Shown piece after piece: positions 1-14,749 of a DNA stretch of 64,000 bases; position 1 is the first letter of the stretch; each line of letters starts with the position of its first letter. Position numbers and translations under genes: made by a program. The stretch is from a virus (taxonomy: Duplodnaviria > Heunggongvirae > Uroviricota > Caudoviricetes), in the IMG/VR virus record IMGVR_UViG_3300035701_000015, positions 12,009 through 76,008 of that record; one strand, 5' to 3'. The notes below the pieces were generated by a model, which saw only the letters and a program-made list of their open reading frames with translations, made no database searches and was not told the DNA's origin.

Positions 1-570
1 AAAGAATTAAAGTATAAAAGACATAAAAATATACATTTACAAAGGGCTTGGAACAAATATGGGGAAGAAAATTTTGAGTTAGCTATCCTACAGATAATAG
101 AGAACGAGAAAGATTTATTCAGTGAAGAATATAAATATCAAAAGATATTTAATTGTTTGGAGAATGGATACAATCAAGACTATCCTTATGGAGAAAAAAT
201 ACCAAGGTCTGAAAAAGTTAGGGAAAAAATTTCGAAAGGTTTAACGGGTAAAATTCAGACAGAAGAACAAAAAAGAAAAAATAGCGAATGGCATAAAAAT
301 TATATATGGACAGAAGAGCATAAAAAGAAGAGGAGGGACCACCTTATTAGAAAAAATAAGATAAATCCCCCAATGCTCGGTAAATGCCATACACCTGAAG
401 CAAAAAAGAAAATGTCAGAAATGAAACGGGAATCATGGCAAAAAAGAAGGTTGAGAACAGAAAAAGATTATAGAAGCGTGGCTCAATGGCACAGCACCGG
501 TCTCCAAAACCGACATTTGGGGGTTCAAGTCCCTCCGCTTCTGAAAGCAGCGACGAGACAAGAAGGCTGA
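1..570 (+). CDS. GIY-YIG homing endonuclease, 5' truncated at window edge
   Basis: Frame 1 runs from position 1 with the GIY-YIG signature LQRAWNKYGEENFE, followed by four NUMOD3-like repeats (GEKIPRSEKVREKIS, TEEQKRKNSEWHKNY, TEEHKKKRRDHL, TPEAKKKMSEMK). The reading frame continues through tRNA-Trp, so the true 3' end is uncertain. Confidence 0.55.
   Translation, partial: KELKYKRHKNIHLQRAWNKYGEENFELAILQIIENEKDLFSEEYKYQKIFNCLENGYNQDYPYGEKIPRSEKVREKISKGLTGKIQTEEQKRKNSEWHKNYIWTEEHKKKRRDHLIRKNKINPPMLGKCHTPEAKKKMSEMKRESWQKRRLRTEKDYRSVAQWHSTGLQNRHLGVQVPPLLKAATRQEG
472..543 (+). tRNA. tRNA-Trp (anticodon CCA)
   Basis: Cloverleaf: acceptor agaagcg/cgcttct, anticodon loop ctCCAaa, T-loop ttcaagt. 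Confidence 0.6.
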
Positions 571-577
571 AGTTAAT

Positions 578-1135
578 ATGAAATGGTTTAGTAGTGATTG
601 GCATCTTGGACATGATAATGTAATGAAATTTTCTGAGAGGCCATTCGAGAACATTGACGATATGAACGAGAAAATTATATCGAACATGTTATCGGTCGTA
701 AATCAAGGCGACGAACTTTACTTCTTGGGTGATCTCGCTTGGAGAGTATATGCTTTGAACAAGTTCTTTGACAGATGGCCCAAGAGAGTTAATTTTCACT
801 GGATTCTTGGAAATCATGACAAGAGTTGGCAATCTTTTAAAAATCGATGCACTTCTGTATCTGAGATGAAGAAGACGCACATAGGGAATAACACTGTCAT
901 ACTATGCCATTATCCGATGCTGACTTGGGATAAGTCGCATTATAATTCTTGGATGCTCTTTGGGCATCATCACAGGAATTCACACGGAACGATAGAAGTA
1001 GAAAAATTAACAACTGGTAAGATGTTAAATATAAATCTCGAGTTTAACAATTTTATGCCTTACTCAGAAGATCAGATTGCAACGATAATGGCTGAGAAAG
1101 ATAATAACTGGGATTTGATAAAAAAGGGCGATTAG
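578..1135 (+). CDS. calcineurin-like metallophosphoesterase
   Basis: Motifs DWHLGH, GDLAWR and GNHD. Confidence 0.65.
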   Translation: MKWFSSDWHLGHDNVMKFSERPFENIDDMNEKIISNMLSVVNQGDELYFLGDLAWRVYALNKFFDRWPKRVNFHWILGNHDKSWQSFKNRCTSVSEMKKTHIGNNTVILCHYPMLTWDKSHYNSWMLFGHHHRNSHGTIEVEKLTTGKMLNINLEFNNFMPYSEDQIATIMAEKDNNWDLIKKGD

Positions 1136-1199
1136 CTTAAATGGTTAAAGCACTTGACCGATAATCAAGAGAGTCTCAGTTCAATTCTGAGATTGCCCA
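1126..1199 (+). tRNA. tRNA-Ile (anticodon GAT), unusual C33
   Basis: Acceptor gggcgat/attgccc, D-arm gctt-aaatggtta-aagc, anticodon arm cttga-ccGATaa-tcaag, T-arm ctcag-ttcaatt-ctgag. Confidence 0.5.
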
Positions 1200-1294
1200 A
1201 ATGATAAATGGAATATTAGTTGGAGTAATGATGTCAATAATGCTAATAGGCTTTCTCTTAGCATATATTTCTGATAACAAGAAGAACTAACGAT

Positions 1295-1369
1295 GCGGGG
1301 TAGACTGGAGTCTGGTTACCAGCCCTGTCTCATAAGCAGGTCTACGTGGGTTCAAATCCCACCCCCGCT
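1295..1369 (+). tRNA. tRNA-Met/Ile2 (anticodon CAT)
   Basis: Acceptor gcggggt/ccccgc, anticodon arm cctgt-ctCATaa-gcagg, T-arm gtggg-ttcaaat-cccac. Confidence 0.55.
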
Positions 1370-1373
1370 AATA

Positions 1374-1441
1374 AGAGCTGAATTGTGGGGCTTATCGACA
1401 AATTGTAAATTGTAAAGGATGCCTCACGAAAATCTTGCTCT
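1374..1441 (+). ncRNA. structured stem-loop element, family member Y0
   Basis: Outer stem agagc/gctct, TGAA internal loop, inner stem gtgggg/cctcac, TTATCG motif, 3' CTTGCTCT. Lies between tRNA-Met and tRNA-Pro. Confidence 0.4.
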
Positions 1442-1447
1442 TTAATA

Positions 1448-1522
1448 CGGGCAGTGGGCTAGTTGGTTTAGGTCGCTCGGTTCGGGGCCGAGAAAACGGC
1501 GGTTCGAATCCGCCCTGCCCGA
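1448..1522 (+). tRNA. tRNA-Pro (anticodon CGG)
   Basis: Acceptor cgggcag/ctgcccg, anticodon arm ctcgg-ttCGGgg-ccgag, T-arm ggcgg-ttcgaat-ccgcc. Confidence 0.55.
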
Positions 1523-1526
1523 AATA

Positions 1527-1593
1527 GAAGCTGAAGGAAAGTGGTTATCGTAAATGCAAATTACACAAACGCCATTTTCCGAACTCTTGCTTC
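1527..1593 (+). ncRNA. structured stem-loop element, family member Y1
   Basis: Outer stem gaagc/gcttc, TGAA, inner stem ggaaagtgg/ccattttcc, TTATCG, 3' CTTGCTTC. Homologous to the flanks of the element at 7598-7727. Confidence 0.45.
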
Positions 1594-1608
1594 TTTTTAG
1601 GAGACAAT

Positions 1609-2034
1609 ATGAAATACACCGAAGAGCCCAAAGATTTATTTTCAGTAGATTTTAAAAAATGGACTCCAGCTCATTGCATTTCGCTTGATTGTAAAATGGG
1701 AGCTGGAATCGCAGTACCAGTGAAGAAGAAGTTTAATCTTAGTGGTTTGTACGATGTCGTAGATGAGCTCGGTCTCGAGTACCCAGTTTGTGTACATCAC
1801 AACGGAGTCTACAACTTAATCACTAAGAAAAATTATTGGGACAAGCCAACATATGACACACTTGAAGGTGCTCTTATCAGCATGAGAGACCATGCTTTAA
1901 AGAATGGTATAAATCATATTGTGATGCCGAAGATTGGTTGTGGCATTGATGGACTTTCATGGTCCATAGTCAGAGAGTTTATCCAAGAAGTTTTTGATGA
2001 CACTGACATAGAAATTTTAATATGTTATATCTAA
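1609..2034 (+). CDS. Macro-domain protein (ADP-ribose binding/processing)
   Basis: GAGIA and PKIGCGIDG motifs typical of macro domains. Confidence 0.6.
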   Translation: MKYTEEPKDLFSVDFKKWTPAHCISLDCKMGAGIAVPVKKKFNLSGLYDVVDELGLEYPVCVHHNGVYNLITKKNYWDKPTYDTLEGALISMRDHALKNGINHIVMPKIGCGIDGLSWSIVREFIQEVFDDTDIEILICYI

Positions 2035-2050
2035 TGAAAAGGAGATAAAG

Positions 2051-2374
2051 ATGATAATGTTCGGAGATAGAATTCTTCTTGAGAAGATAGAAGAAAAAGT
2101 CGAAGAGAAAAAATCTGAGGGTGGAATTGTAATTCCTAATCAGGTTGAAGAAAGAAAACTGAAAAACAAACACATCTTTCGTGGAGTTATAAAACTAACT
2201 GGAAAAGATGTGAAACTGGTTGAAGCAAAAGATGTAGTGTTATTTAACATCATCAATACACAACAGATTGAGCTTGAAGGAAAAGAATTTTTTATCATGG
2301 AAGAAAAAAACCTTTTGGCTAAAATAGCTCCAGAAGCGAAGATTCAAGAAGTTGCGAAACTTATCAACATTTAA
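2051..2374 (+). CDS. groES: GroES-like co-chaperonin (Cpn10)
   Basis: GDRILLEK...SEGGIVIP...G.VI..G...V..GD.VLF pattern in a ~100 aa protein. Confidence 0.65.
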   Translation: MIMFGDRILLEKIEEKVEEKKSEGGIVIPNQVEERKLKNKHIFRGVIKLTGKDVKLVEAKDVVLFNIINTQQIELEGKEFFIMEEKNLLAKIAPEAKIQEVAKLINI

Positions 2375-2467
2375 GGAGGTGAGACTATGTTGTAGGCTCG
2401 CGATCGTGGTCCTCCCGTCTGAATTGATTTCTAACCAATTTCAATTCAAACTATAAGGAGAAAAACC

Positions 2468-2872
2468 ATGACTAAGGAACAGTATTTTCAATTAAAAGAA
2501 GAACAGAAGGAACTCGGAAAGAAAATCCGAGAAACGAAGGGCGGGTTCAGGGAAGATCAGAGAAACTTCTCTAAATGCCAGAGCACTGCTAATGATTATT
2601 ATAAAGGAAAAACAGACAGTGCTACTTGGGAAAAGATTAGACCCGAGTACAACAAGCTTAACGAGAAACAGTTTAAGTCGATGTGTGATTTGCATAAGAC
2701 GCAAAGAGAGTACAGACACAAACACATCATCTACTGTTTTGCTCGTGGAAAAACTATGAAACAAATTGAGCCTAAAGTTCGAGAGCACAATGAGCCCAAC
2801 CAAACAGAGCTTCAGAGACTTATGAAACTCTACGACGTTCGGGAACCTCTTGCATTAGAGGTCGCAATATGA
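2468..2872 (+). CDS. hypothetical protein
   Basis: ORF with an AGGAG ribosome-binding site upstream. Confidence 0.5.
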   Translation: MTKEQYFQLKEEQKELGKKIRETKGGFREDQRNFSKCQSTANDYYKGKTDSATWEKIRPEYNKLNEKQFKSMCDLHKTQREYRHKHIIYCFARGKTMKQIEPKVREHNEPNQTELQRLMKLYDVREPLALEVAI

Positions 2873-3204
2873 AAACCATAGAAGCTTACATGATTTATTG
2901 TGGCACTGGTTGTACATGTTGCAGTAGCGAAAACCATTACAGAGGTTTTTACAAGACAGAGGAAGAGGCGAATAGGAGAATTCAATACTTCTATTCTCCA
3001 ACTAGCAAGTTCTGGCCTCTTGCTTCACAATATGCAACAAGGGGAAGATACTCAGTCGAGAAGGTGACGACTGAAGAAATTGGAGACGGAAGGTTCATTT
3101 TGAACAATGATAAAATTCTCCAAGACTTGAGCTTTGTCGAGTTGAACGTTGACGGGTCAATAGAAAATAACGAGGATGATTATTTATTCTCGGATCTATA
3201 TTGA
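2869..3204 (+). CDS. hypothetical protein (Cys-rich N-terminus)
   Basis: ATGA start overlap with the upstream gene. Confidence 0.45.
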   Translation: MKTIEAYMIYCGTGCTCCSSENHYRGFYKTEEEANRRIQYFYSPTSKFWPLASQYATRGRYSVEKVTTEEIGDGRFILNNDKILQDLSFVELNVDGSIENNEDDYLFSDLY

Positions 3205-3208
3205 CTAT

Positions 3209-3226
3209 GGGGACTTCGGTCCTCCA
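3209..3226 (+). other. GC hairpin with TTCG tetraloop
   Basis: ggggacTTCGgtcctcc, immediately 5' of a tRNA. Confidence 0.3.
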
Positions 3227-3230
3227 AGAT

Positions 3231-3303
3231 GTCTCCGTAGCTCAATGGCAGAGCGGCTGCCTCTAAAGCAGTGTCAGTGAAGGTTCAAGTCCTTTCGGAG
3301 ACC
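3231..3303 (+). tRNA. putative amber-suppressor tRNA (anticodon CTA)
   Basis: Acceptor gtctccg/cggagac, D-arm gctc-aatggca-gagc, anticodon arm gctgc-ctCTAaa-gcagt, T-arm gaagg-ttcaagt-ccttt. Confidence 0.5.
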
Positions 3304-3513
3304 ACAACTATGGGCGATATAATTGGAGTTGTAATGCCTCACAGAAATAATATAATAGGAGTTGTTTATGAAAAAGATGGTCAGATTTATATGGCTGAAC
3401 CGATAGCAAATTTAACTTCAAAGAAAACTTCAGATCTGAACAATAAAAGTAATGACCATCTTATAAGGTCAATTGAAGACATTAAAAAAGTATATACAAT
3501 AAAGCAATTAAAG

Positions 3514-3586
3514 GGCCCCGTAGTTCACCGGATAGAACATTAGCCTTCTAAGCTAATTGTAGCAGGTTCGATTCCTGCCGGGGTCG
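3514..3586 (+). tRNA. tRNA-Arg (anticodon TCT)
   Basis: Anticodon arm ttagc-ctTCTaa-gctaa, T-arm gcagg-ttcgatt-cctgc. Confidence 0.6.
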
Positions 3587-3589
3587 AAT

Positions 3590-3952
3590 ATGTCACCAGT
3601 AACTAACAGCTATTATTTTGAAAGGATGCCGAATGGAAATATGTTTATGGCGCCCATAGTAAGACCTCTGCAAGAAGTGATATCTGAAAGAACTCAAGTA
3701 GCAGAATTCTTTCGTCAGGGTCCAAACGCCGAAGTTCTTGCTGGAGTTTGTGATCTGATAAAAGCTGATATGGTTTTTAAGAATAAGAAAATAATAATGA
3801 AGAATATGAAAGTTTCTACAAGTCTTGAGATGCAACACAAGATTGACATTTACAATACTATTACAGCAAAAGAATTAATAGAAGAATACAAGAAAAACAG
3901 AGACAACAATAACGAGAAAAAATATATGAAACGAATAAAGGATTACAAATGA
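3590..3952 (+). CDS. hypothetical protein
   Basis: ORF starting right after tRNA-Arg. Confidence 0.5.
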   Translation: MSPVTNSYYFERMPNGNMFMAPIVRPLQEVISERTQVAEFFRQGPNAEVLAGVCDLIKADMVFKNKKIIMKNMKVSTSLEMQHKIDIYNTITAKELIEEYKKNRDNNNEKKYMKRIKDYK

Positions 3953-4098
3953 GAAAATGTAATTGGACCGATTGTTTTAGAGAATCTGGTCATTGCGATA
4001 ATAATTTTAAGCATAAAGTATTTTATTATACTAAAAGGAACAAACACAGACGCAAATTATTGCTATGTGAAGAACATTTAAATACTCTTAGAAAATAG
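3949..4098 (+). CDS. small Cys/His-rich protein (49 aa)
   Basis: ATGA overlap with the upstream gene; CxxxxC...HC...CxxH spacing. Confidence 0.3.
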   Translation: MRKCNWTDCFRESGHCDNNFKHKVFYYTKRNKHRRKLLLCEEHLNTLRK

Positions 4099-4149
4099 AA
4101 GATAGAGCAGATGAAGTAATGGGATTTAAAATAATTGAAATTGTAGAAA

Positions 4150-4221
4150 GACTCCATCGTCCAACGGACAAGACAGAAGTTTCCTAAACTTCAAATCTGG
4201 GTTCAATTCCCAGTGGGGTCA
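4150..4221 (+). tRNA. tRNA-Arg (anticodon CCT), short D-stem
   Basis: Acceptor gactcca/tggggtc, anticodon arm gaagt-ttCCTaa-acttc, T-arm ctggg-ttcaatt-cccag. Confidence 0.5.
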
Positions 4222-4223
4222 AG

Positions 4224-4601
4224 ATGCCTTACGAGTATCAAAGAAAGTTAAAAGCTATCTATGACGTAATCGGTATGAGAGTTGAAAAAACTCCCATATT
4301 GCGAGAAAAAGGTGCAGTGATTATTGAAGATTTTGTAACTCTTCATTATCTGAAAAATAAAAAACTCGTCATATTAAAATGTGCTCCTGGTAGCCGTTTC
4401 ACCTTAGAATCGATAGCGCAAGAACTTGAAAGGAATTTAACTAAAAGCGACAAGCTTTCTGATTGGTGGCAAATTACTAATGAAGGCTTAGTCATGATCT
4501 TTGACATATACGGATATGAAGCTGTCAGGGCAGAAGACCAAAAGAGACTCGTTCAGCTTTTATTAAAGAGAGAGAGAGTTCCGAAAGTTAAAGCAAGATA
4601 A
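4224..4601 (+). CDS. hypothetical protein
   Basis: ORF. Confidence 0.5.
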   Translation: MPYEYQRKLKAIYDVIGMRVEKTPILREKGAVIIEDFVTLHYLKNKKLVILKCAPGSRFTLESIAQELERNLTKSDKLSDWWQITNEGLVMIFDIYGYEAVRAEDQKRLVQLLLKRERVPKVKAR

Positions 4602-4605
4602 TTAT

Positions 4606-4902
4606 ATGTATAGTTCGATGTATAAACTTTTTGGTAAATTCGTGAAATATAATTCATATATAAGATTGAATTACTCCTGGTTGCCTAAAGGTATAATGTA
4701 TATTTATGGTAAAACGGAGTTCACGCCTTATCCTTTAGCTATTAGTGGTTCTAAAATTTATACTAGACCAAACGACCCAATAAAAGTTTTACAGTCTAAT
4801 GATGCAGCAAAGAATTTTATACTAGTGAAACCCACTGAAAGAGAATGCAGAATTTTTATAAATAATATATTCGTCGCAGACTTTGGATATCATAATGAAT
4901 AA
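4606..4902 (+). CDS. hypothetical protein, paralog A
   Basis: Shares KLFGK...GIMY.YG...GSKIY...NFI..KPTE..C..FI.N with the next gene. Confidence 0.5.
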   Translation: MYSSMYKLFGKFVKYNSYIRLNYSWLPKGIMYIYGKTEFTPYPLAISGSKIYTRPNDPIKVLQSNDAAKNFILVKPTERECRIFINNIFVADFGYHNE

Positions 4903-5167
4903 ATCGATGAAGAAGCTTTTCGGGAAAGTAATAAAAGCTAAATCTGATAGCGCTGGTGAAGGGTGGTTAGGGATAATGTATGTCTACGGTTCTGAAATAG
5001 ACGATGGTTATGAGAGGGCTCATATCATAAGAGGTAGTAAGATTTATAAAGAAGAAATGCGATTCGGATTACCGGTAGCTGAAAAAGCTTCTAATTACAT
5101 AATAACAAAGCCCACTGAAAAGCAATGCAAGAACTTTATCATCAACGCTTTTAATGCCTTTGACTAA
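4883..5167 (+). CDS. hypothetical protein, paralog B
   Basis: Tandem paralog of 4606..4902. Confidence 0.5.
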   Translation: MDIIMNKSMKKLFGKVIKAKSDSAGEGWLGIMYVYGSEIDDGYERAHIIRGSKIYKEEMRFGLPVAEKASNYIITKPTEKQCKNFIINAFNAFD

Positions 5168-5176
5168 GATAAACTC

Positions 5177-5440
5177 ATGGAACTAAATCAAATTCTCCGC
5201 CTTGATGAATATGTTGGCTTAGTAGATAAAGGTGAAATAAATCCCAGTGAGTTAGAATTAGCACTGAAACTGTTAAAGTCTAAAGAGGATGCTCAAAGAT
5301 TAGCTTCTCGGCTTAAAAAAGTAGCACTTCGAAAAGAAGTTAAAAGAGCAAGAGAATTAGCTCAGTCATTCACTAAAAACATTTATGTTTCATTTTTTCT
5401 TGATGCTCTCGAAGAAAAACCCGTTGCTCAAGTCTCTTAA
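5177..5440 (+). CDS. hypothetical protein
   Basis: ORF ending immediately before a tRNA. Confidence 0.5.
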   Translation: MELNQILRLDEYVGLVDKGEINPSELELALKLLKSKEDAQRLASRLKKVALRKEVKRARELAQSFTKNIYVSFFLDALEEKPVAQVS

Positions 5441-5441
5441 T

Positions 5442-5516
5442 GGCTCCATCGTCTAAACGGTTTAGGATATCACTCCCTCAAAGTGAAGACTACGGGTTCA
5501 AGCCCCGTTGGAGCTA
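5442..5516 (+). tRNA. tRNA-Glu-like (anticodon CTC), predicted C33
   Basis: Acceptor ggctcca/tggagct, anticodon arm tcact-ccCTCaa-agtga, T-arm acggg-ttcaagc-cccgt. Confidence 0.45.
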
Positions 5517-5552
5517 AAGTTTCGATTCAATCGTATAATTAAAGCATAGATA

Positions 5553-5625
5553 GGGCGGTTAGCTCAACTGGAAGAGTATCTGGTCTACACCCAGAGGGTC
5601 GGGGGTTCAAATCCCTCCCCGCCCA
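5553..5625 (+). tRNA. tRNA-Val (anticodon TAC)
   Basis: Anticodon arm tctgg-tcTACac-ccaga, T-arm ggggg-ttcaaat-ccctc. Confidence 0.55.
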
Positions 5626-5649
5626 AAACTAAAAAGTGAAGGAGAAAAT

Positions 5650-6141
5650 ATGAAACAGATTTTCTGGTTCGTTCTTCTTTTCGCAACTTTGATTTGCACT
5701 GTAGCTTCTGCTGACTGGATCGGGATGGAATATGAGATAGAAGGTGGTTGGAGTCCCTTCGGTGGTTTCGGAGGTTATGAGGTAGCTCAAAGTAAATTTC
5801 TTACCATCGATGGAAAAACTTATTCTCTCTATTCGTTTGACCAGGAAGAGTGGAACGTTTTTTATCTGGAACTTTCCACTAGAGTTTGGCTTTGGGAGCA
5901 TATTTTTGTAGGAGGATCAGTCACTACGTTAATGAGCTTTGTGGGGGAGAAAAATTTTAATCCGTATTTCTCGAACTATATGTTTGAGAGCGGAGTTAAG
6001 TTCGGTTCTCTTGAATTGTTTTATTCTCACGATTGTACTCATCCTGTGACTCCCTATGCTTATTCTTATCGGCTCACGTCTCTTTGGGGAGAAGGAGGAG
6101 TTGACAGGATTGGATTTCGCTTAAAAGGTGGAATGAAATAA
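5650..6141 (+). CDS. secreted hypothetical protein
   Basis: N-terminal signal peptide MKQIFWFVLLFATLICTVASA. Confidence 0.55.
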   Translation: MKQIFWFVLLFATLICTVASADWIGMEYEIEGGWSPFGGFGGYEVAQSKFLTIDGKTYSLYSFDQEEWNVFYLELSTRVWLWEHIFVGGSVTTLMSFVGEKNFNPYFSNYMFESGVKFGSLELFYSHDCTHPVTPYAYSYRLTSLWGEGGVDRIGFRLKGGMK

Positions 6142-6147
6142 TTTTAA

Positions 6148-6219
6148 GGTCCCATCGACTAGTGGTCAGGTCAGCAGCCCTTCAAGCTGTAGACGCGGGT
6201 TCGACTCCCGCTGGGACTA
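6148..6219 (+). tRNA. tRNA-Glu-like (anticodon TTC), predicted C33
   Basis: Acceptor ggtccca/tgggact, anticodon arm gcagc-ccTTCaa-gctgt, T-arm gcggg-ttcgact-cccgc. Confidence 0.45.
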
Positions 6220-6222
6220 ATC

Positions 6223-6295
6223 GCGGTAGTAGCTCAAATGGTAGAGTGCAGTCCTTCCAAGTCTGAAGTTACGGGTTCGAGTCCCGTCTACCGCT
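6223..6295 (+). tRNA. tRNA-Gly (anticodon TCC)
   Basis: Acceptor gcggtag/ctaccgc, anticodon loop ctTCCaa, T-arm acggg-ttcgagt-cccgt. Confidence 0.5.
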
Positions 6296-6323
6296 CACGG
6301 AGTAATAAGACGGAGTAATAAGT

Positions 6324-6587
6324 ATGAGCAAAAACAAAATTTACGTTGTTACTATGTACCGATACGGGAACAAACAGAACGATTCATATGTTCTGGGAGC
6401 TTTTTCGAAGAAGCAAAAAGCTTTCGACGAAGCTGATGCAGAAGAAGCTTATCGAGGTGGGAAATATTCTGGTGAAGTACTGGAGTTTAACCCAAATGAA
6501 TCGATTCGCATTACAGAGAAGGCGAAGATCGTTAGAGTGGTCAAACTTCATCCCGAACTCGGTAGCATACCCAGAGGCGCACTCTAA
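6324..6587 (+). CDS. hypothetical protein
   Basis: Preferred over the overlapping frame 6346..6747. Confidence 0.5.
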   Translation: MSKNKIYVVTMYRYGNKQNDSYVLGAFSKKQKAFDEADAEEAYRGGKYSGEVLEFNPNESIRITEKAKIVRVVKLHPELGSIPRGAL

Positions 6588-6588
6588 A

Positions 6589-6747
6589 ATGAAAGAAGAT
6601 ATTAAATGGCCCACGATGAATGAAGTTCGAGAAGCTGATGGAGATCAGATTTTAAAATGGTTTAAAATTCTTCCTGTTCCTATCACAGAAGAACAGAAAG
6701 AAATTAAATTAGAAATAGATTGGGCGTTCATAGAGCTCAATCGATAA
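6589..6747 (+). CDS. small hypothetical protein (52 aa)
   Basis: Starts with MKEDIKW directly after the upstream stop. Confidence 0.35.
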   Translation: MKEDIKWPTMNEVREADGDQILKWFKILPVPITEEQKEIKLEIDWAFIELNR

Positions 6748-6756
6748 GGAGACAAC

Positions 6757-6999
6757 ATGGACAAGACGTACTCGAGGTGCTGGTCGATCACTACGGCTCC
6801 CAGTGTTGGGCTTGGTACTTTAGCATGGATCGCTTTGATTGTCCTCAAAGCTTTGGGACACATCGGCTTATCTTGGTTTTTGGTCATCACTTCAATCATA
6901 TGGATTCCTATAGCACTCACGATAGCACTCACGATAGCAATAGGAATACCAGTGGTTATTGTTCTTGTAATTGCGGCTATAATCGCATCGCAGCTATAA
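6757..6999 (+). CDS. small membrane protein
   Basis: Two hydrophobic helices. Confidence 0.45.
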   Translation: MDKTYSRCWSITTAPSVGLGTLAWIALIVLKALGHIGLSWFLVITSIIWIPIALTIALTIAIGIPVVIVLVIAAIIASQL

Positions 7000-7019
7000 T
7001 TAATTAATGGAGGTAATAT

Positions 7020-7172
7020 ATGTTTAAGATGGTAATTTGGGTTTTAATAATTGCTTTCTTGCTTTGCGCACTTTGTGTTTTTGTTGTGGGCCCCAAGAAA
7101 GTTGGGAACACAATTGAAAAGTACGGCGTGAAGAATACAATTGGAAGGCTCTGGAACGGATCACCTCAATAA
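7020..7172 (+). CDS. small membrane protein (50 aa), paralog
   Basis: One TM helix and a C-terminal ...KYGVKNTIGRLWNG tail similar to 7182..7367. Confidence 0.35.
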   Translation: MFKMVIWVLIIAFLLCALCVFVVGPKKVGNTIEKYGVKNTIGRLWNGSPQ

Positions 7173-7181
7173 GGAGTAAAT

Positions 7182-7367
7182 ATGGATTTTGACAAGACGT
7201 TCAAACGCACAATTAGGGCTGCTGTTATTATTTGGGTTCTTGTAGCATTTTTCACGGTTGCATTCATTTTTGGAGTAATTTTCTTTGCCGTCAAAGCAGT
7301 GAAGGCAGTCGAACAATATGGTCTGAAGAATACAATTGAAAGAGTTTGGGAAGGACCGAGTAAATGA
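7182..7367 (+). CDS. small membrane protein, paralog
   Basis: TM helix and VEQYGLKNTIERVWEG tail. Confidence 0.45.
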   Translation: MDFDKTFKRTIRAAVIIWVLVAFFTVAFIFGVIFFAVKAVKAVEQYGLKNTIERVWEGPSK

Positions 7368-7521
7368 AATGCACTTATTGTGGTAGACGGATTTGGTGGT
7401 TTCAAAATAGAGCACCCGATAGTAATGGATATATACATAGTACACCTTTCGGATGTAAATGGCATAAGTTCAATGATCGGATGTCGTTAAAGATAGAGGC
7501 TATTTTAGAGATAAAGAAATA

Positions 7522-7594
7522 GGGGCTGTAGCTCAATTGGGAGAGCGCCTGACCTGCAATCAGGAGGCAGGGAGTTCAAATCTCCTCAGCTCCA
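7522..7594 (+). tRNA. tRNA-Ala (anticodon TGC)
   Basis: Acceptor ggggctg/cagctcc, anticodon arm cctga-ccTGCaa-tcagg. Confidence 0.6.
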
Positions 7595-7597
7595 AAT

Positions 7598-7727
7598 GAA
7601 GCTGAACAGAAAGAGGTTATCGTACTAGGAACGAGAGGTCATTGGTTCGAATCCAATCCTCGGCAAATCATGCCGAGGTAGCCTAGTGGTTAGGGCGCTA
7701 AAACATCTTTTTCTAAAAACTTGCTTC
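7598..7727 (+). ncRNA. modular structured RNA (Y2) with permuted tRNA-like module
   Basis: Outer stem gaagc/gcttc, TGAA, inner stem agaaagagg/ctttttct. Apical module is T-arm attgg-ttcgaat-ccaat (7641-7657), acceptor hairpin cctcggc-aaatcat-gccgagg (7658-7678), then D-arm gcct-agtggtta-gggc (7681-7696). Confidence 0.4.
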
Positions 7728-7747
7728 TTAATTTTTGAGGTGATAAT

Positions 7748-8098
7748 ATGGGAAAGCTAAAGAGAGTAGAAGTTCGAGACATTTTAGAACAAGTAGTAGA
7801 CTTTGACAGTCTTACTCTAGAAGATGCTCGTAAGTTACTCGATAGTTTTTTAAGTAGATATGCTAGTATTTATCACAATATTTATTTTGAACAAAATTAT
7901 CAGCACGACATAAGCGATGAACTTCAGCTCATTGGCAACCGATTCGAGAACGACGAGGAATATGGAAGACGACTCGCTGATCAGAAGATGTTTCGAGACA
8001 ACAAGAAGAAAGAGAAAGAACAAAAGGAAGCTGAAGAATACAAAGAATATTTAAGACTCAGAGAAAAGTTTAATGGGTCGGTTAAGGGTAATTGGTGA
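7748..8098 (+). CDS. hypothetical protein
   Basis: The 3' end overlaps tRNA-Tyr by 24 nt. Confidence 0.5.
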   Translation: MGKLKRVEVRDILEQVVDFDSLTLEDARKLLDSFLSRYASIYHNIYFEQNYQHDISDELQLIGNRFENDEEYGRRLADQKMFRDNKKKEKEQKEAEEYKEYLRLREKFNGSVKGNW

Positions 8099-8163
8099 AC
8101 CCTCCAGTCTGTAAAACTGGCGCCTTTCGGCTAACACTGCAGGTTCGAGTCCTGCCCGGCCCA
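8075..8163 (+). tRNA. tRNA-Tyr (anticodon GTA), type II
   Basis: Acceptor gggtcgg/ccggccc, anticodon arm ccagt-ctGTAaa-actgg, 18-nt variable arm, T-arm gcagg-ttcgagt-cctgc. Confidence 0.55.
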
Positions 8164-8164
8164 A

Positions 8165-8461
8165 ATGGAAGAATATCCAATATGTCAAAGATGCGGCGTC
8201 TGTTGTGCATCTACTCTTTGTAGAGTAGGGAAAGATGGAGATAATGGCATCTGTTTTTTCTTAGAGAAAACTGAGAACAATATTTATTCTTGCTCTTTGT
8301 TAGCTTGGAGTAAAATCAAGGGAAGCGACATAAATATAAACAAAGGTTGCATCCTCAGGTCTAAGATCTTTATATTCGAGAATTACGAAAAATTAGCACT
8401 TCCTCGATTGGAGAAACGCTTTAGCTGTCAAAACTGGAAAGCTAACTTTGGCAAAAGCTAG
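8165..8461 (+). CDS. YkgJ-like CxxCxxCC zinc/iron-chelating domain protein
   Basis: CQRCGVCC motif. Confidence 0.45.
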   Translation: MEEYPICQRCGVCCASTLCRVGKDGDNGICFFLEKTENNIYSCSLLAWSKIKGSDININKGCILRSKIFIFENYEKLALPRLEKRFSCQNWKANFGKS

Positions 8462-8708
8462 AAAAGATATTGAAGAGCTTATAGAAGCCCCGGGACCTTA
8501 CGGACATAATATTGTAAGTCTTATTTTAAGAAGCATTGCAACAGAACTTGGCTATGATAAAGCTAATAAGATAGTTGAAGAGTTAGAGTTAGATAAAATC
8601 TTTTCGATTCCAAAATATTGGCCAGCTATTGATATGCTAAAAAACGGCATTAAAAATTCTCAAGTAGGATTTGAGGGACCTACTAAGAAAAAGTTTTCTA
8701 CTTTATAA
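8448..8708 (+). CDS. hypothetical protein
   Basis: ORF. Confidence 0.45.
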   Translation: MAKARKDIEELIEAPGPYGHNIVSLILRSIATELGYDKANKIVEELELDKIFSIPKYWPAIDMLKNGIKNSQVGFEGPTKKKFSTL

Positions 8709-8717
8709 GGAGAGAAC

Positions 8718-9014
8718 ATGCTCAAGCCAAATGAAGAAGATTTTTATACTCAGAAGTATTTCGAAGACATAAAATCGATGAATCAATCTTTGAGAAGCGA
8801 TCCAAAAAACATTCCTTTATTGTTTGAAGATCTCAAGCAATTGATGGTAGATCGTGGCTTTAAAGATCCCGAAGAAATAAAATCTTTGGCCATAACGATG
8901 TTGACTTTTCCATTTTCAGGGAAAGTGAAAATGACAGAAGCTGAAATAGAAGAAAACTATAATAAGCTTTTGCTCATTCTAGAAGACGGAATTCTTGAGA
9001 TTTGTGAGAACTAA
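8718..9014 (+). CDS. hypothetical protein
   Basis: ORF with AGGAGAG upstream. Confidence 0.5.
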   Translation: MLKPNEEDFYTQKYFEDIKSMNQSLRSDPKNIPLLFEDLKQLMVDRGFKDPEEIKSLAITMLTFPFSGKVKMTEAEIEENYNKLLLILEDGILEICEN

Positions 9015-9137
9015 TAAATCTCGTGAGTAAAGTAGAGATCGCCGAAGCGAGATCAGCAAGCTTTACTCACAGAGGAGCTGGAGAGGTCACAAGAGCAGAA
9101 GCTGTAATGGCTTCAGCAAGCTCAGGGGCCACGAATA

Positions 9138-9211
9138 GGGTCAGTAACGCAATGGTTTAGCGTACCAGACTTTTAATCTGGGAGTTGGAGGTTCGAATCC
9201 TCTCTGACCCA
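9138..9211 (+). tRNA. tRNA-Lys (anticodon TTT)
   Basis: Acceptor gggtcag/ctgaccc, anticodon arm ccaga-ctTTTaa-tctgg, T-arm ggagg-ttcgaat-cctct. Confidence 0.6.
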
Positions 9212-9214
9212 AAA

Positions 9215-9346
9215 GAAAGACTGACCGTGAAGGGGTTACCGACTGATAATCGAGAGGTCGTGAGTTCAAATCTCACTCAGTCTGAAAAGACTGATAGCTC
9301 AGGCTGGTAGAGCACTAAAATATCCTTTTGCAATTTCTTGTCTTTC
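9215..9346 (+). ncRNA. modular structured RNA (Y3) with degenerate tRNA-Ile-like module and duplicated 5' half
   Basis: Outer stem gaaagac/gtctttc, inner stem aagggg/cctttt. Degenerate tRNA-like at 9218-9284 (acceptor agactga/tcagtct, loop ctGATaa, T-arm gtgag-ttcaaat-ctcac). GAAA-capped acceptor hairpin, then a second agactga-ta-gctc-aggctggta-gagc 5' half (9288-9313). Confidence 0.4.
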
Positions 9347-9359
9347 TTTTTAAAAAACT

Positions 9360-9719
9360 ATGAACAAACAGATCACTCAAAATCTTTTAAAAGATCGAAC
9401 ATGTAATAATTGCGACCGCATGGAGGGTTACCGTCTCAGGCACGACCTCCCAATATGCTCTTTGAAAAAGAGAAGCAAGTATAAAACTTGTGAAGAATGG
9501 ACCGAAAGAGGTTATTTGTCATCCTCTATGTCGAGTAAAGAGTGGGTTGATATTATGTCAGTGAAAAAAGAAATAGTCTTTCCAATTAATCGCGCTGCTA
9601 CAATTCGAGGAGTACGAGTTTATATCACTGATACACGTGATCTCATTTATGAACAAAATTTTCCAGAATCTTATGTTGTTCCAACTGTGGGTGGTTCTAT
9701 AACTCTAAAGTTTACATAA
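9360..9719 (+). CDS. small Cys-motif family protein (LLKDRTCNNC)
   Basis: N-terminal QNLLKDRTCNNC motif shared with at least 9 other ORFs in this window. Confidence 0.5.
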   Translation: MNKQITQNLLKDRTCNNCDRMEGYRLRHDLPICSLKKRSKYKTCEEWTERGYLSSSMSSKEWVDIMSVKKEIVFPINRAATIRGVRVYITDTRDLIYEQNFPESYVVPTVGGSITLKFT

Positions 9720-9730
9720 GATAAAACTAA

Positions 9731-9850
9731 CAGCTGAAGTGATGAGTTTATCGGAAACTAGTTGTCTAGGTTCGACTCCTGGCTCCCATTTTTGGGATGT
9801 AGTGTAATGGTAGCACACCAGTCAAAACAACTTATTACGTTTACTTGCTG
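9731..9850 (+). ncRNA. modular structured RNA (Y4) with degenerate permuted tRNA-like module
   Basis: Outer stem cagc/gctg with TGAAG. T-arm-like tagg-ttcgact-cctgg, T-rich-capped acceptor-like hairpin, D-arm gtgt-aatggta-gcac (9802-9816), 3' CTTGCTG. Confidence 0.3.
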
Positions 9851-9927
9851 TTATTTATGAGTGGGATTATCAAAAAGAGTGAAGAGATAAGGTAGAAAAA
9901 TATGCGGAAATCCATTTAATTGATGAA

Positions 9928-10000
9928 GGGGCTGTAGCTCAACTGGGAGAGCATCACAATGGCATTGTGAGGGCAGAGAGTTCGACCCTCTCCAGCTCCA
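9928..10000 (+). tRNA. tRNA-Ala (anticodon GGC)
   Basis: Acceptor ggggctg/cagctcc, anticodon arm tcaca-atGGCat-tgtga, T-arm gagag-ttcgacc-ctctc. Confidence 0.55.
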
Positions 10001-10011
10001 AGGGCGACAAT

Positions 10012-10341
10012 ATGAAGTACGAAGTTGAGAAAACGTCTGAAAAAGAGAAAACGATAAAGCGTTTAAAAGACTGCTGGCACGAAATAATTACATCAAGAGG
10101 ATCAGATAAAGTAGCTAGATGTGAGCATTGTGATTATGGTAAATTTGAACTCAAATGGTATTGCCCTAAAAGCCCAGATCACATATGCCATTGGAAATCT
10201 ATGTTTGATTATCCAAGCGGTCTTAGATATGTATTTTCTATCAATGGCGAAAAGATATATTTGAAAGATAAAAGCTATAAGGGGAATTACGAATCACCAG
10301 ACTATTGTATATTTTGTGGTGAACCAGAAGAAAGAAAATGA
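10012..10341 (+). CDS. Cys/His-rich zinc-finger-like protein
   Basis: Start trimmed to the ATG after tRNA-Ala; CEHCDY...CPKSPDHICH...CIFCG. Confidence 0.5.
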   Translation: MKYEVEKTSEKEKTIKRLKDCWHEIITSRGSDKVARCEHCDYGKFELKWYCPKSPDHICHWKSMFDYPSGLRYVFSINGEKIYLKDKSYKGNYESPDYCIFCGEPEERK

Positions 10342-10640
10342 TTTGGGAATTAAACACAAACTATTATTATTTTATTTTTTATAACGCTGAAAAAGAATTT
10401 GGTTTAGCAAAAGTCGAAGTAATTGGGCGTCCGTTGTCGACGTATTTCCCTTTACTGAAAATATTAAAAATTTATACTCCAGACGTATGGTTAGGACATA
10501 AAGACAGAATCGCAGAAAATGGAACTGTAACTGCTAACGAATTCCAGGGAGTAGGAGCTTCAGGGCCAGACGGTTTCTTTTTCACTGAAAAAAGTCTAAT
10601 TGAAGCTATATTCGAGAAAGATAATTACAAATCAGATTAG
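10338..10640 (+). CDS. hypothetical protein
   Basis: ATGA overlap with the upstream gene. Confidence 0.45.
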   Translation: MIWELNTNYYYFIFYNAEKEFGLAKVEVIGRPLSTYFPLLKILKIYTPDVWLGHKDRIAENGTVTANEFQGVGASGPDGFFFTEKSLIEAIFEKDNYKSD

Positions 10641-10650
10641 GAGGCCAGTT

Positions 10651-10884
10651 ATGGCAGAAGCACAGAAAGGATATCAAATTAGTCAAGATAAGGGTAAAGC
10701 CCAGCAAGATATGAGAGGCAAGGGACCGGGAGCAGTTCGAGGAAAAGAATTCGGAGCTCAGAAGATGGGACCCAAGCAAGGTGATACTAAGGGTCAACCC
10801 AAGCAACCCTGGGGAAAGGGTAAGATGGGTGGGATGAAAGCTGAAGGCAATCAACCACACGAAGGCGACGGTGACGCTCAATAA
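10651..10884 (+). CDS. Gly/Lys-rich low-complexity protein
   Basis: GGAGG RBS then ATG; KGxG repeats. Confidence 0.4.
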   Translation: MAEAQKGYQISQDKGKAQQDMRGKGPGAVRGKEFGAQKMGPKQGDTKGQPKQPWGKGKMGGMKAEGNQPHEGDGDAQ

Positions 10885-10894
10885 GGAGAAAGAA

Positions 10895-11158
10895 ATGCCA
10901 CATAAAGATGGTAAGGGACCTGCCGAAAAAGGCATGGATTCATGCATAGATAAGCATGGGAACGTAAATGCTGAGCAGTTTAGTGAATTGTTTACGCGTG
11001 CCATTCGTGGCGAGCTAAATAATATCGATGACCCAAGAGGTGGTTATACACCCCGAGGCGGCTATCGAAAAACTGGACCCCAACCTGGTCCGGGCCCATT
11101 CCACGGTGAAACTACACACTATGGATTGGACGATGTCGGCCAAGGGGAAAAGAAATAA
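10895..11158 (+). CDS. Gly/Pro-rich small protein
   Basis: AAGGAG RBS; PRGGYTPRGGYRKTGPQPGPGP. Confidence 0.4.
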   Translation: MPHKDGKGPAEKGMDSCIDKHGNVNAEQFSELFTRAIRGELNNIDDPRGGYTPRGGYRKTGPQPGPGPFHGETTHYGLDDVGQGEKK

Positions 11159-11177
11159 CCAGCTCTTCTAGATATAA

Positions 11178-11203
11178 GGGTCATCTTCGGATGACCCTTT
11201 TTT
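11178..11203 (+). terminator. rho-independent terminator
   Basis: gggtcatc-TTCG-gatgaccc followed by TTTTTT. Confidence 0.6.
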
Positions 11204-11407
11204 ATTGGGAGCTTACAATAAAAATCTTAGCGTTTTGTAAAAAATGTGGGACTATAATTGGATTGACAAGAAAAGATCTTGCAATTACACTTTATCCATG
11301 CGATTTTTGTGGATATCATATTGGAATTCGTCTTCATTGGGTATGCATTTGTGGCACTAAAAGTAATTATGAATGTTTAAATAGAGAGCCTTGTGGTAAT
11401 TAACAAT

Positions 11408-11483
11408 CCGGCGGTAGCTCAGCTGTGGTATGAGCATCTGACTGAAGATCAGAGGGTCGCCCGTTCAACTCGGGCCCGTCGGG
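11408..11483 (+). tRNA. tRNA-Phe (anticodon GAA)
   Basis: Acceptor ccggcgg/ccgtcgg, anticodon arm tctga-ctGAAga-tcaga, T-arm gcccg-ttcaact-cgggc. Confidence 0.55.
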
Positions 11484-11497
11484 CAAGATAAAAAGAT

Positions 11498-11686
11498 ATG
11501 GAATGTAATCGAAAAGGCACATGCTTGTTTTATAAGAAATACAAGAACGTGTATGCAGCAGCTGAGTCTTTTATCAAGATCGCTTGCAGCAACATGAATG
11601 TACCATGCGCAAGAAGAATTTGGAAAGATCTTCGGAAAGATGAACCACCGGAAAATTATACTCCGGCTGGAACTAGAATTCAATAG
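11498..11686 (+). CDS. small hypothetical protein (62 aa)
   Basis: ORF between tRNA-Phe and tRNA-Lys. Confidence 0.3.
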   Translation: MECNRKGTCLFYKKYKNVYAAAESFIKIACSNMNVPCARRIWKDLRKDEPPENYTPAGTRIQ

Positions 11687-11759
11687 GGCTCGTGGCAGAA
11701 CGGATTTATGCACCAGACTCTTAATCTGGATTAAGGAGGTTCAATTCCTCTCGAGCTCA
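11686..11759 (+). tRNA. tRNA-Lys (anticodon CTT)
   Basis: Acceptor gggctcg/cgagctc, anticodon arm ccaga-ctCTTaa-tctgg, T-arm ggagg-ttcaatt-cctct. Confidence 0.55.
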
Positions 11760-11807
11760 CTTTTCAAATTTCAGGGTTCGAAACGATATGTGAATATTGT
11801 AGATTCT

Positions 11808-11879
11808 GTCCTGGTAGCCAAGTGGTAAGGCGGCGGTCTGCAAAATCGTTAATCGTCAGTTCAAATCTGACCCAGGACT
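11808..11879 (+). tRNA. tRNA-Cys (anticodon GCA)
   Basis: Acceptor gtcctgg/ccaggac, anticodon loop ctGCAaa, T-arm gtcag-ttcaaat-ctgac. Confidence 0.55.
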
Positions 11880-11894
11880 CACAGGACAAGACTG

Positions 11895-12143
11895 ATGGAC
11901 GAGAATAAACTAAAGAAGTTGAAGTCTATCAACTACAAAGTCAAAAGCTGTTGCGGTATGTGTGCTTACAGTAAGTTTAAGAATAGAGATTATTGGGGAA
12001 TTTGCAGAGCACATAAATATAAGCACGAAAAGCATACGGACTCGGCAAGACAGCTTTCAATTTATTGTTTTGGTAGTTGTCCTTACTTCAAAGTCAGTCA
12101 ATATTTCAAAGACGATTTGGGAGTATGGACTGAATTCTTATAA
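11895..12143 (+). CDS. Cys-rich small protein
   Basis: CCGMC...C...CFGSC. Confidence 0.45.
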   Translation: MDENKLKKLKSINYKVKSCCGMCAYSKFKNRDYWGICRAHKYKHEKHTDSARQLSIYCFGSCPYFKVSQYFKDDLGVWTEFL

Positions 12144-12185
12144 GGAGGTACAAAAATGACATGTTATAGTTAAAGGAGAATAAAC

Positions 12186-12428
12186 ATGTCTAGATCGTAC
12201 AAAAAATATCCTGGTTGGTCGGGAAGGCCTGCGGGTCCTTATGAAAAGAAAACATCTAACCATAAAGTTAGAAAAGCTCTTAGTATCGCTAATGGTTCAG
12301 CTTTCAAGAAGGTGTATAATAGCTATAACATCAGAGATTTCAATTTCAGATATTACAGTCAACGAGAAGCGATAGATAAACTAACTAAATATTATGACGA
12401 TAAAGTCTATCAATCTTGGATAAAGTAA
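12186..12428 (+). CDS. hypothetical protein
   Basis: AAGGAG RBS. Confidence 0.45.
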   Translation: MSRSYKKYPGWSGRPAGPYEKKTSNHKVRKALSIANGSAFKKVYNSYNIRDFNFRYYSQREAIDKLTKYYDDKVYQSWIK

Positions 12429-12434
12429 TCAGAC

Positions 12435-12507
12435 GCCCCCATCGTATATCGGATGAGTACTCCACGCTTCGAACGTGGCGGGCCGGGTTCAATTCCTGGT
12501 GGGGGTA
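12435..12507 (+). tRNA. tRNA-Arg (anticodon TCG)
   Basis: Acceptor gccccca/tgggggt, anticodon arm ccacg-ctTCGaa-cgtgg, T-arm ccggg-ttcaatt-cctgg. Confidence 0.5.
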
Positions 12508-12524
12508 AATAAGCGGAGACTAAT

Positions 12525-12842
12525 ATGACTTTCGGTGAAAAGTGGCGGAAAGATCTAATCGATGAGTGGATAACACACGAAACTCGTGAAAAGATTTCTT
12601 ATTTCTATCTTACAAATTACCGAGATGGATTTTTTACTGGATACTATATCTTAATTCAAAAAGGGTATCCAAAGAGCATAAATTATTCCGATCTAAAATT
12701 CAGCAATCGGATTATCGCTGAACTGAGTAATTGGGTTGGTTATAAAAAGATCACAGACAATTCTATGTACTTAACACTAGCTAAGTTAGTAACTCGGGCT
12801 ATGTTGAAGAATGATAAAAAATCAACTGGAGTTCTGGGGTAA
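12525..12842 (+). CDS. hypothetical protein
   Basis: ORF. Confidence 0.5.
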   Translation: MTFGEKWRKDLIDEWITHETREKISYFYLTNYRDGFFTGYYILIQKGYPKSINYSDLKFSNRIIAELSNWVGYKKITDNSMYLTLAKLVTRAMLKNDKKSTGVLG

Positions 12843-12845
12843 TTC

Positions 12846-13292: not shown

Positions 13293-13482
13293 ATTAGAAT
13301 TATATGCAGATAAAGATTGCCCTGACGATGAAGATCATGATTACGATAATTGTCCTTATTGCCAAGCAAGACACGCTATTAACGAAATCGGAGAAATAGC
13401 GGAAGAGTACTTGAAGAAAATAAATATGATGGCGAAAAAAGAAAATTATATATCCCAACCTTGGTGGCAATTGGGACGTTAA
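13276..13482 (+). CDS. hypothetical protein
   Basis: ORF. Confidence 0.4.
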   Translation: MKIIAELELYADKDCPDDEDHDYDNCPYCQARHAINEIGEIAEEYLKKINMMAKKENYISQPWWQLGR

Positions 13483-13486
13483 GCAT

Positions 13487-13560: not shown

Positions 13561-13584
13561 CAAATCAGTATGAGAGGAGATAAT

Positions 13585-14715: not shown

Positions 14716-14749
14716 TAGCATAATTATATCGAAAGATAATTAAGAGAAC

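Follow-up and report, generated by a model that had tools for sequence, protein, structure and literature searches.

A conserved tRNA with an amber-suppressor anticodon in a clade of uncultured huge phages that end many genes with TAG

Introduction

Suppressor tRNAs carried by phages are the main known viral route to a switch of genetic code during infection. They accompany stop-codon recoding that is concentrated in structural and lysis genes (10.1101/2021.08.26.457843), and the documented cases come almost entirely from gut phages in which TAG stops are depleted. Outside guts, alternative codes are found in 0–0.65% of jumbo phages (PMC13037316). A tRNA gene with the anticodon CUA, lying in a phage that ends many of its genes with TAG, raises the question of whether it is a genuine amber suppressor and, if so, which UAG codons it would read. 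Here, we address this question for such a gene in a stretch of 64,000 nucleotides of viral DNA (positions 12,009 to 76,008 of IMG/VR record IMGVR_UViG_3300035701_000015), referred to throughout as the window. Firm conservation of a suppressor in a non-gut clade of huge phages with common TAG stops would provide a useful test case: suppressors might come before recoding, might serve only some programmed sites or might have roles directed at the host.

The phage and its relatives

The window has a GC content of about 37% and is part of an uncultured huge phage. No near nucleotide match to it was found among the 50,697 deposited phage genomes of INPHARED, where the matches to its DnaE are from Streptomyces phages and reach only about 30% identity. 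Short contigs from three independent samples belong to the window phage (at least 99.96% nucleotide identity), and the sequence of the suppressor tRNA is identical in all three. In contig L021 the tRNA array of the window runs 2.3 kb further upstream, adding a tRNA-Ile(UAU) and a tRNA-Asn. The DNA of relatives was retrieved as loci extending 10 kb either side of homologues of window genes, and no capsid, portal, terminase or tail gene was found in any locus retrieved in this way. Xanthomonas jumbo phages were considered as a proxy for late genes and rejected, having only one domain in common with the window phage. IMG/VR and JGI metagenome contigs, scanned for exact and degenerate forms of the tRNA sequence, gave chance matches or nothing. 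The habitat of the clade appears to be environmental and not the gut, judging from the JGI and Logan environmental metagenome collections that yielded the contigs.

The content of the window is mostly tRNA, nucleotide-metabolism and replication genes (table 1), and includes a dCMP deaminase, a dUTPase, an amidase endolysin, the peptidyl-tRNA hydrolase PTH2, Cpn10, a peptide deformylase, a Ro60/TROVE protein and a split DnaE. Four auxiliary genes are unusual for phages, namely those for the radical-SAM enzyme with a LAM_C domain, S-adenosylmethionine decarboxylase, Cpn10 and peptide deformylase. The Ro60/TROVE protein, which also carries a vWA domain, is kept in relatives at 67% identity (IMG/VR contigs L004–L006) and about 92% (L117); the roughly 900 nt that lie 5′ of its gene (28774–29703) contain no convincing open reading frame (ORF) and no Rfam match to a Y RNA or any other family. 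DnaE is encoded by two genes in reversed order: the C-terminal part, with NTPase, finger and HhH domains, comes first, and the N-terminal part, with the PHP domain, follows 2.2 kb downstream and has at its end a HINT/intein-like domain, suggestive of a trans-splicing split intein. This gene order is also that of the relative L002 (10001–15246 and 17898–19028), where the C-terminal part has an extra insertion of about 2.9 kb. The largest ORF, of 954 amino acids, encodes a collagen-like GPAGVPGPPGAPGPSG run and, after it, a long stretch in which many β-strands are predicted. It has a single homologue (63% identity) among 5.8 billion proteins, no match in PDB, Pfam or PHROG and no tblastn match in INPHARED, and its AlphaFold model is unusable (pLDDT 29.7); the product may be a fast-evolving fibre or receptor-binding protein.

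Table 1. Positions of the tRNA genes, protein genes and other elements of the window that are discussed in the text.
Feature	Position	Strand	Evidence or remarks
tRNA array, 32 tRNA genes interleaved with small ORFs, none with 3′ CCA	471..37157	+	ARAGORN, Rfam
Protein gene running into tRNA-Ile	578-1135		TAG stop at 1133-1135
tRNA-Ile	1126-1199	+	
tRNA-Gly(GCC), weak	1294-1370	+	33 bits; odd anticodon position
GroES-like Cpn10	2051-2374	+	
111-aa Cys-rich protein gene, directly upstream of suppressor	2869..3204	+	Motifs TGCTCC, ENHYRGFY, PLASQYARRGRY
GC-rich hairpin, UUCG loop, no U-tract	3208..3226	+	Fold -9.4 kcal/mol; ends 4 nt before tRNA 5′ end
CUA tRNA, class I, 73 nt, discriminator C73, no encoded CCA	3231..3303	+	ARAGORN, Rfam, fold, covariation
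77-aa ORF between suppressor and tRNA-Arg	3310..3543	+	Direct read; TAG stop at 3541-3543
tRNA-Arg(UCU), downstream neighbour of suppressor	3514..3586	+	ARAGORN; Rfam 64.6 bits
67-nt tRNA-like element, directly after tRNA-Lys	9218-9284	+	Rfam only, 30.4 bits
Radical-SAM enzyme with lysine-2,3-aminomutase C-terminal domain (LAM_C)	25808-26884	-	
Ro60/TROVE and vWA protein	29704-31326	+	
954-aa ORF	33304-36168	+	
tRNA-Met, 82 nt	37076-37157	+	ARAGORN only
S-adenosylmethionine decarboxylase	38745-39095	+	
Peptide deformylase, directly upstream of endolysin	44981-45439	+	
Endolysin	45432-45965		
DnaE, C-terminal part	52756-55005	+	
DnaE, N-terminal part	57221-58648	+	
CCA-adding enzyme (tRNA nucleotidyltransferase with HD domain)	61139..62452	+	Pfam PolyA_pol 4.9e-40, PolyA_pol_RNAbd, HD, tRNA_NucTran2_2

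A CUA tRNA of canonical build

The first-pass annotation had described a well-formed 73-nt cloverleaf with the anticodon loop cu-CUA-aa, had taken it for the amber-suppressor tRNA of a large phage and had suggested ARAGORN as a check. Run on the window, ARAGORN places a tRNA at exactly 3231–3303 with the anticodon cta, and prints the label 'tRNA-Pyl'. The Rfam tRNA model RF00005, whose gathering score is 29, matches the same nucleotides from end to end (model positions 1–71) with 60.8 bits and an E-value of about 1e-10 to 1e-12, and in its alignment the anticodon loop reads CU-CUA-AA. The ViennaRNA fold of the 73 nt is a clean cloverleaf of −24 kcal/mol. Coordinates, cloverleaf and loop are therefore as first described, and none of the programs placed a sense anticodon at this position.

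The structure is that of a canonical class I elongator tRNA as defined by RF00005. The acceptor stem (GUCUCCG/CGGAGAC) is followed by the discriminator base C73 and is separated from the D stem by U8-A9; the D stem (GCUC/GAGC) closes a loop, AAUGGCA, that contains GG. The anticodon stem (GCUGC/GCAGU) has 5 bp, the variable loop has 6 nt and the T arm (GAAGG-UUCAAGU-CCUUU) carries a standard TTCRA T loop. The label printed by ARAGORN is not borne out by this architecture. The hallmarks of tRNA-Pyl are a 6-bp anticodon stem, a 3-nt variable loop, a small D loop without G18G19 and one base between the acceptor and D stems, along with pylS and pylBCD genes. The window tRNA has the CUA anticodon and the program label in common with tRNA-Pyl but none of its structural hallmarks: the D loop has 7 nt with GG, two bases separate the acceptor and D stems, the anticodon stem has 5 bp and the variable loop 6 nt. 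No pylS or pylBCD-like family came up in a Pfam sweep of the window, which took in 112 ORFs and, in addition, the 10 longest.

Position within the tRNA array

The suppressor is co-oriented with the rest of the array. A 3′ CCA is absent from the flanks of all tRNA genes in the window, the suppressor included, so the CCA-adding enzyme encoded towards the other end of the window would be needed for their maturation. The tRNA-Arg(UCU) gene that lies downstream again follows the suppressor in L024, L031 and L032, and the 77-aa ORF that separates the two genes in the window has homologous ORFs in L024 and L025 and was called as a gene of 77 amino acids in L023. This ORF is one of two protein genes that enter the 5′ part of the next tRNA and stop at a TAG inside it, the other being the gene that runs into tRNA-Ile, an overlap conserved in L031.

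Directly upstream of the suppressor lies the gene for a Cys-rich protein of 111 amino acids, for which 35 homologues were detected and aligned. The family has no Pfam or PHROG annotation and is widespread in the tRNA arrays of huge phages; in Xanthomonas jumbo phages it is fused into a protein of 262 amino acids. Between this gene and the tRNA there is a GC-rich leader hairpin. Hairpins of like structure and other sequence precede the suppressor in L024 (about 2557–2576), L031 (about 3686–3701) and L032 (about 3016–3039), such that in four lineages, the window included, the hairpin ends 3–6 nt before the tRNA; L118 has none. Within the window, the suppressor is the only one of the 32 tRNAs with a leader hairpin of this kind, which could be a processing or stability element.

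Conservation of the suppressor among relatives

CUA tRNAs lie downstream of the 111-aa gene in six further phage contigs (L024, L025, L031, L032, L067 and L118), one of which, L025, is 278 kb long. In these relatives, the flanking 111-aa protein is 41–80% identical to that of the window. The anticodon is CUA without exception in the seven tRNAs that occupy this place. The window tRNA was aligned with five orthologues, L118 being left out, and the stems covary in all six sequences: 98.4% of stem cells pair, and 15 of the 21 stem pairs have changed on both sides. None of 500 shuffles reached these values, and the signal was lost when pairing partners were slid by one to three columns. CUA thus occupies positions 34–36 of a conserved tRNA body, within loop letters (T-CTA-A) that are invariant in the six aligned tRNAs. 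The trinucleotide A36-A37-A38 is present in six of the seven; this is the context required for i6A37 modification and for efficient reading of codons that start with U.

The suppressors were compared with 108 class I tRNAs of the clade. They are each other's nearest neighbours, and no sense isoacceptor comes closer: the window and L024 tRNAs are 90% identical, L032 is 64–68% identical to both, and the best sense tRNA reaches about 60–65%. Together, this mutual clustering and the covariation of the stems argue for an old suppressor family and against a recent anticodon mutation. A decaying tRNA gene is excluded by the covariation and by the Rfam score of 60.8 bits. On the evidence of the aligned sequences, 3231–3303 is a genuine, selectively maintained, phage-encoded tRNA and, as the first-pass annotation had supposed, an amber suppressor by its anticodon; the family to which it belongs is old by the same comparisons, and selection has maintained it in one syntenic place throughout this clade of huge phages. 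Such strong conservation argues that productive decoding of UAG matters to the phage. The discriminator base has varied meanwhile, being C in the window, L024 and L032, A in L031, L025 and L118, and G in L067.

A scan of GTDB genomes found class I CUA tRNAs of similar general build scattered over many metagenome-assembled genomes (MAGs), with no close match to the window CUA tRNA; the best agrees at 58 of 73 positions. A more distant relative, the 229-kb contig L026 (GC content 52%), carries the same 111-aa family together with a class II CUA tRNA of 90 nt (11882–11971, minus strand). The long variable arm and G73 of this tRNA make it Ser-like and point to an independent origin of an amber suppressor. 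Two of the suppressor-bearing relatives encode, a few kb upstream of the CUA tRNA, proteins of 110–113 amino acids (L025 2627–2968 and L118 1494–1826) whose match to class I release factors is confined to the GGQ peptidyl-tRNA hydrolase domain, the codon-reading domain being absent. The window has the PTH2 hydrolase instead. A link between the GGQ-only proteins and the rescue of ribosomes stalled after readthrough is possible but speculative.

Amino-acid identity

The first-pass annotation had considered a Gln-derived suppressor possible, having found no tRNA-Gln in the window. The latter observation stands, there being none among the 32 window tRNAs, but the array continues upstream of the window, and in L025 a tRNA-Gln(UUG) is found in the equivalent upstream part, so the absence says little about the whole genome. 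Derivation from tRNA-Gln is not supported by the tRNA itself. The tRNA-Gln signature that was tested comprises a weak U1-A72 pair, G73, G2-C71 and G3-C70. The suppressor has G1-C72, U2-A71, C3-G70 and C73, whereas the tRNA-Gln of the clade (from L025) has U1-A72 and G73, is dissimilar to the suppressor and is not among its nearest neighbours, which are other suppressors only.

The nearest annotated phage tRNAs are the tRNA-Trp of Stenotrophomonas phages (81% identity) and the tRNA-Asn of Gordonia phages (80%), a similarity that is confined to the generic tRNA core; Trp, Asn and Lys tRNA bodies are about equally distant from the suppressor. In Escherichia coli, it is mostly GlnRS or LysRS that charges a CUA tRNA whose acceptor identity is not strong. 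By analogy with this behaviour, Gln or Lys would be the likeliest amino acid, and Trp would be possible. The published reassignments of TAG in phages are to Gln (10.1101/2021.08.26.457843).

Use of TAG in the window and in sampled relatives

If the suppressor had brought about a general reassignment of TAG (code 15) in the sampled DNA, this would be visible in gene structure. The ORFs of the window end at standard stops, as the first-pass annotation had observed, and a greedy gene set under code 11 covers, with the tRNAs, 91% of the window. Genes on the plus strand end with TAA in 66 cases, TGA in 24 and TAG in 17 (17/107); pooled with relatives, TAG ends 46 of 255 genes, such that overall TAG is the stop of 16–18% of genes. 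With TAG treated as a sense codon, no real gene of the window or of nine related loci becomes longer, and code 15 leaves the longest ORFs as they are. ORF pairs with a TAG as the sole break between them occur in about the number expected by chance, and each second ORF has a start codon of its own.

Orthologous proteins lead to the same result. A tblastx screen for in-frame stops was too noisy and tblastn with called proteins was used; in about 10,000 aligned residues each way between the window and its relatives, no credible in-frame TAG was found, the only instances belonging to a spurious antisense ORF and to an ORF with a tRNA overlap. No in-frame TAG breaks the endolysin gene, which is intact, and the 954-aa ORF and its orthologue of 977 amino acids are uninterrupted. 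This orthologue comes from a suppressor-bearing relative in sample SRR6159086, to which the loci L024 and L117 belong. Stop codons at orthologous C-termini have been exchanged: the C-terminal part of DnaE ends with TAG in the window and with TAA in L002, the gene at 9967–10341 ends with TGA in the window and with TAG in L024, and the gene at 31391–31609 ends with TAA in the window and with TAG in L117. TAG thus works as a terminator even in relatives that bear the suppressor. Backup stops after TAG show a trend in the window (p = 0.13) that is gone once relatives are pooled.

Individual candidates for readthrough were rejected one after the other. A NUDIX fusion at 59780–60613 is contradicted by a relative in which the downstream gene has its own ATG and the upstream gene ends with TAA. 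The extension by 42 amino acids of the C-terminal part of DnaE is not conserved; that of the gene running into tRNA-Ile is conserved only because of the overlap with the tRNA; the one at 10338–10640 is a separate small gene in another frame; and the 'TAG then ORF' candidate at 37955–38374 has no homologues.

In the Pfam sweep of the window, the translation-related matches are PTH2, peptide deformylase, Cpn10 and the CCA-adding enzyme, and no gene for a release factor, release factor 2 (RF2) included, or for an aminoacyl-tRNA synthetase was found. Across the window and the sampled relatives there is no credible in-frame TAG, no gain from reading TAG as sense and no depletion of TAG stops, and the sweep of the window shows no accessory gene of the kind that would mark code 15.

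What the suppressor may do

In the mechanism that we propose, the suppressor would be transcribed together with the tRNA array, its 5′ end would be cut by RNase P, CCA would be added by the phage CCA-adding enzyme and charging would be carried out by a host synthetase. The charged suppressor would then compete with release factor 1 (RF1) at UAG codons. We put at about one half the probability that the UAG sites it serves are limited in number and lie in parts of the genome beyond the sampled DNA. Some structural or late genes could contain them, either as in-frame UAGs or as places where C-terminal readthrough is programmed. A limited role is the most likely one because TAG is an ordinary and frequent stop codon and the examined genes have no in-frame TAG, and a wholesale change of genetic code is less likely than a limited set of sites.

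A related proposal, which we regard as possible if somewhat doubtful, is that the suppressor has been kept through deep divergence, beside normal UAG stops, for regulated readthrough that would yield extended isoforms of a few virion proteins or for deliberate readthrough of host genes ending in UAG, and not for a change of code. The GGQ-only rescue factors and PTH2 could then mitigate the ribosome stalling that would result.

The suppressor might also be functional while having no dedicated targets in the phage, its readthrough of UAG at a low level perturbing host proteins whose genes end in UAG or buffering amber mutations that arise in so large a phage genome. We consider this reading rather unlikely: CUA and the cloverleaf have been kept strictly while flanking proteins have diverged to as little as 41% identity, which implies appreciable selection, whereas mutational buffering would give weak selection only, and a host-directed effect of natural phage suppressors is not documented in the literature examined. 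The reading accords with the sampled DNA, in which no UAG target of the phage was found and in which many of the phage's own TAG-terminated genes have no extra backup stop, as would fit a weak suppressor. The drift of the discriminator between C, A and G likewise suggests a relaxed constraint on the amino acid loaded, and CUA tRNAs have arisen independently in related phages, the 90-nt class II tRNA of L026 being one of them.

Wholesale, stage-specific recoding under code 15, as known from crAss-like, Lak and related gut phages, would make most structural and lysis genes outside the window rich in in-frame TAG, to become readable once the suppressor accumulates. Of the roles of phage CUA tRNAs, recoding has the best documentation, and phages that practise it often keep the standard code in their replication genes (10.1101/2021.08.26.457843), so a recoded late module could lie outside a window with the gene content described above; the strong conservation of the suppressor would also fit. 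We nonetheless consider such recoding distinctly unlikely. The published route to it starts from depletion of TAG stops (10.1101/2021.08.26.457843), whereas here TAG ends genes at an ordinary frequency and is exchanged with TAA and TGA, also in the suppressor-bearing relative represented by L024 and L117. The endolysin, a member of a class that is preferentially recoded in known TAG-recoded phages (10.1101/2021.08.26.457843), lacks in-frame TAG, as do the 954-aa ORF and its orthologue, the window has neither an RF2 nor a synthetase gene in the Pfam sweep, and recoding is rare in non-gut jumbo phages (PMC13037316). Normal TAG stops, an intact endolysin and an apparently non-gut setting together speak against a switch of a whole module to code 15.

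That the gene is no translational suppressor at all, being a tRNA-Pyl, a gene in decay, or a decoy or substrate of host defences that target tRNAs, is very improbable: the ARAGORN label, the radical-SAM enzyme with its LAM_C domain and the published link of large-phage tRNA arrays to the repair or evasion of tRNA cleavage (PMC7162821) would favour it, but tRNA-Pyl architecture and pyl-like families are absent from the tRNA and the Pfam sweep respectively, covariation and the Rfam score exclude decay, and a decoy role would not explain the invariant CUA and its A37-A38 context.

Annotators would do well to examine the structural genes of this clade under both codes 11 and 15. A natural family of CUA tRNAs whose acceptor end is unusual, with C73, A73 or G73, is also of possible interest for genetic-code expansion.

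Comparison with known suppressor systems

Phage CUA suppressors are already well documented, and the window tRNA adds one to their number; as it stands, it is an ordinary instance of a known phage feature. The classical amber suppressors are supE (tRNA-Gln), supF (tRNA-Tyr) and su7 (a tRNA-Trp with CUA that is largely charged with Gln) of E. coli, and phage T4 psu1+ is an amber suppressor derived from tRNA-Ser. They have CUA followed by A37-A38 and compete with RF1 at UAG, as would be expected of the window tRNA. Classical suppressors are, however, single-step mutants of sense tRNAs and resemble their parents, whereas the window family has no recognizable parent among the sense tRNAs of its clade.

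A closer comparison is with the TAG-recoded crAss-like, Lak and other gut clades (10.1101/2021.08.26.457843; PMC9523058; PMC13037316), which have a phage-encoded class I CUA tRNA in common with the window phage. As in those phages, the suppressor lies in a part of the genome that is compatible with the standard code, alongside other translation genes. The window differs in its frequent and genuine TAG stops and in an endolysin that is not recoded. It also differs in having no in-frame TAG across 64 kb and the sampled relatives and no RF2 or synthetase gene in the window, and in belonging to a clade that, from the metagenome collections in which it is found, is apparently environmental.

A standard-code relative of the Agate phages that carries a suppressor tRNA has been proposed to represent a precursor state to recoding (10.1101/2021.08.26.457843). 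There, as in the window phage, the suppressor stands beside standard-code genes, but the Agate relative has a TGA suppressor and is close kin of recoded phages, whereas the window has a TAG suppressor and no recoded relative is known. Since the window suppressor has been conserved through deep divergence and has no known recoded relative, it does not look like a recent, transient acquisition. What distinguishes it among phage suppressors is this deep conservation, a tRNA body unrelated to the sense tRNAs of its clade, a variable discriminator base, a leader hairpin and the frequent TAG stops beside which it has been kept.
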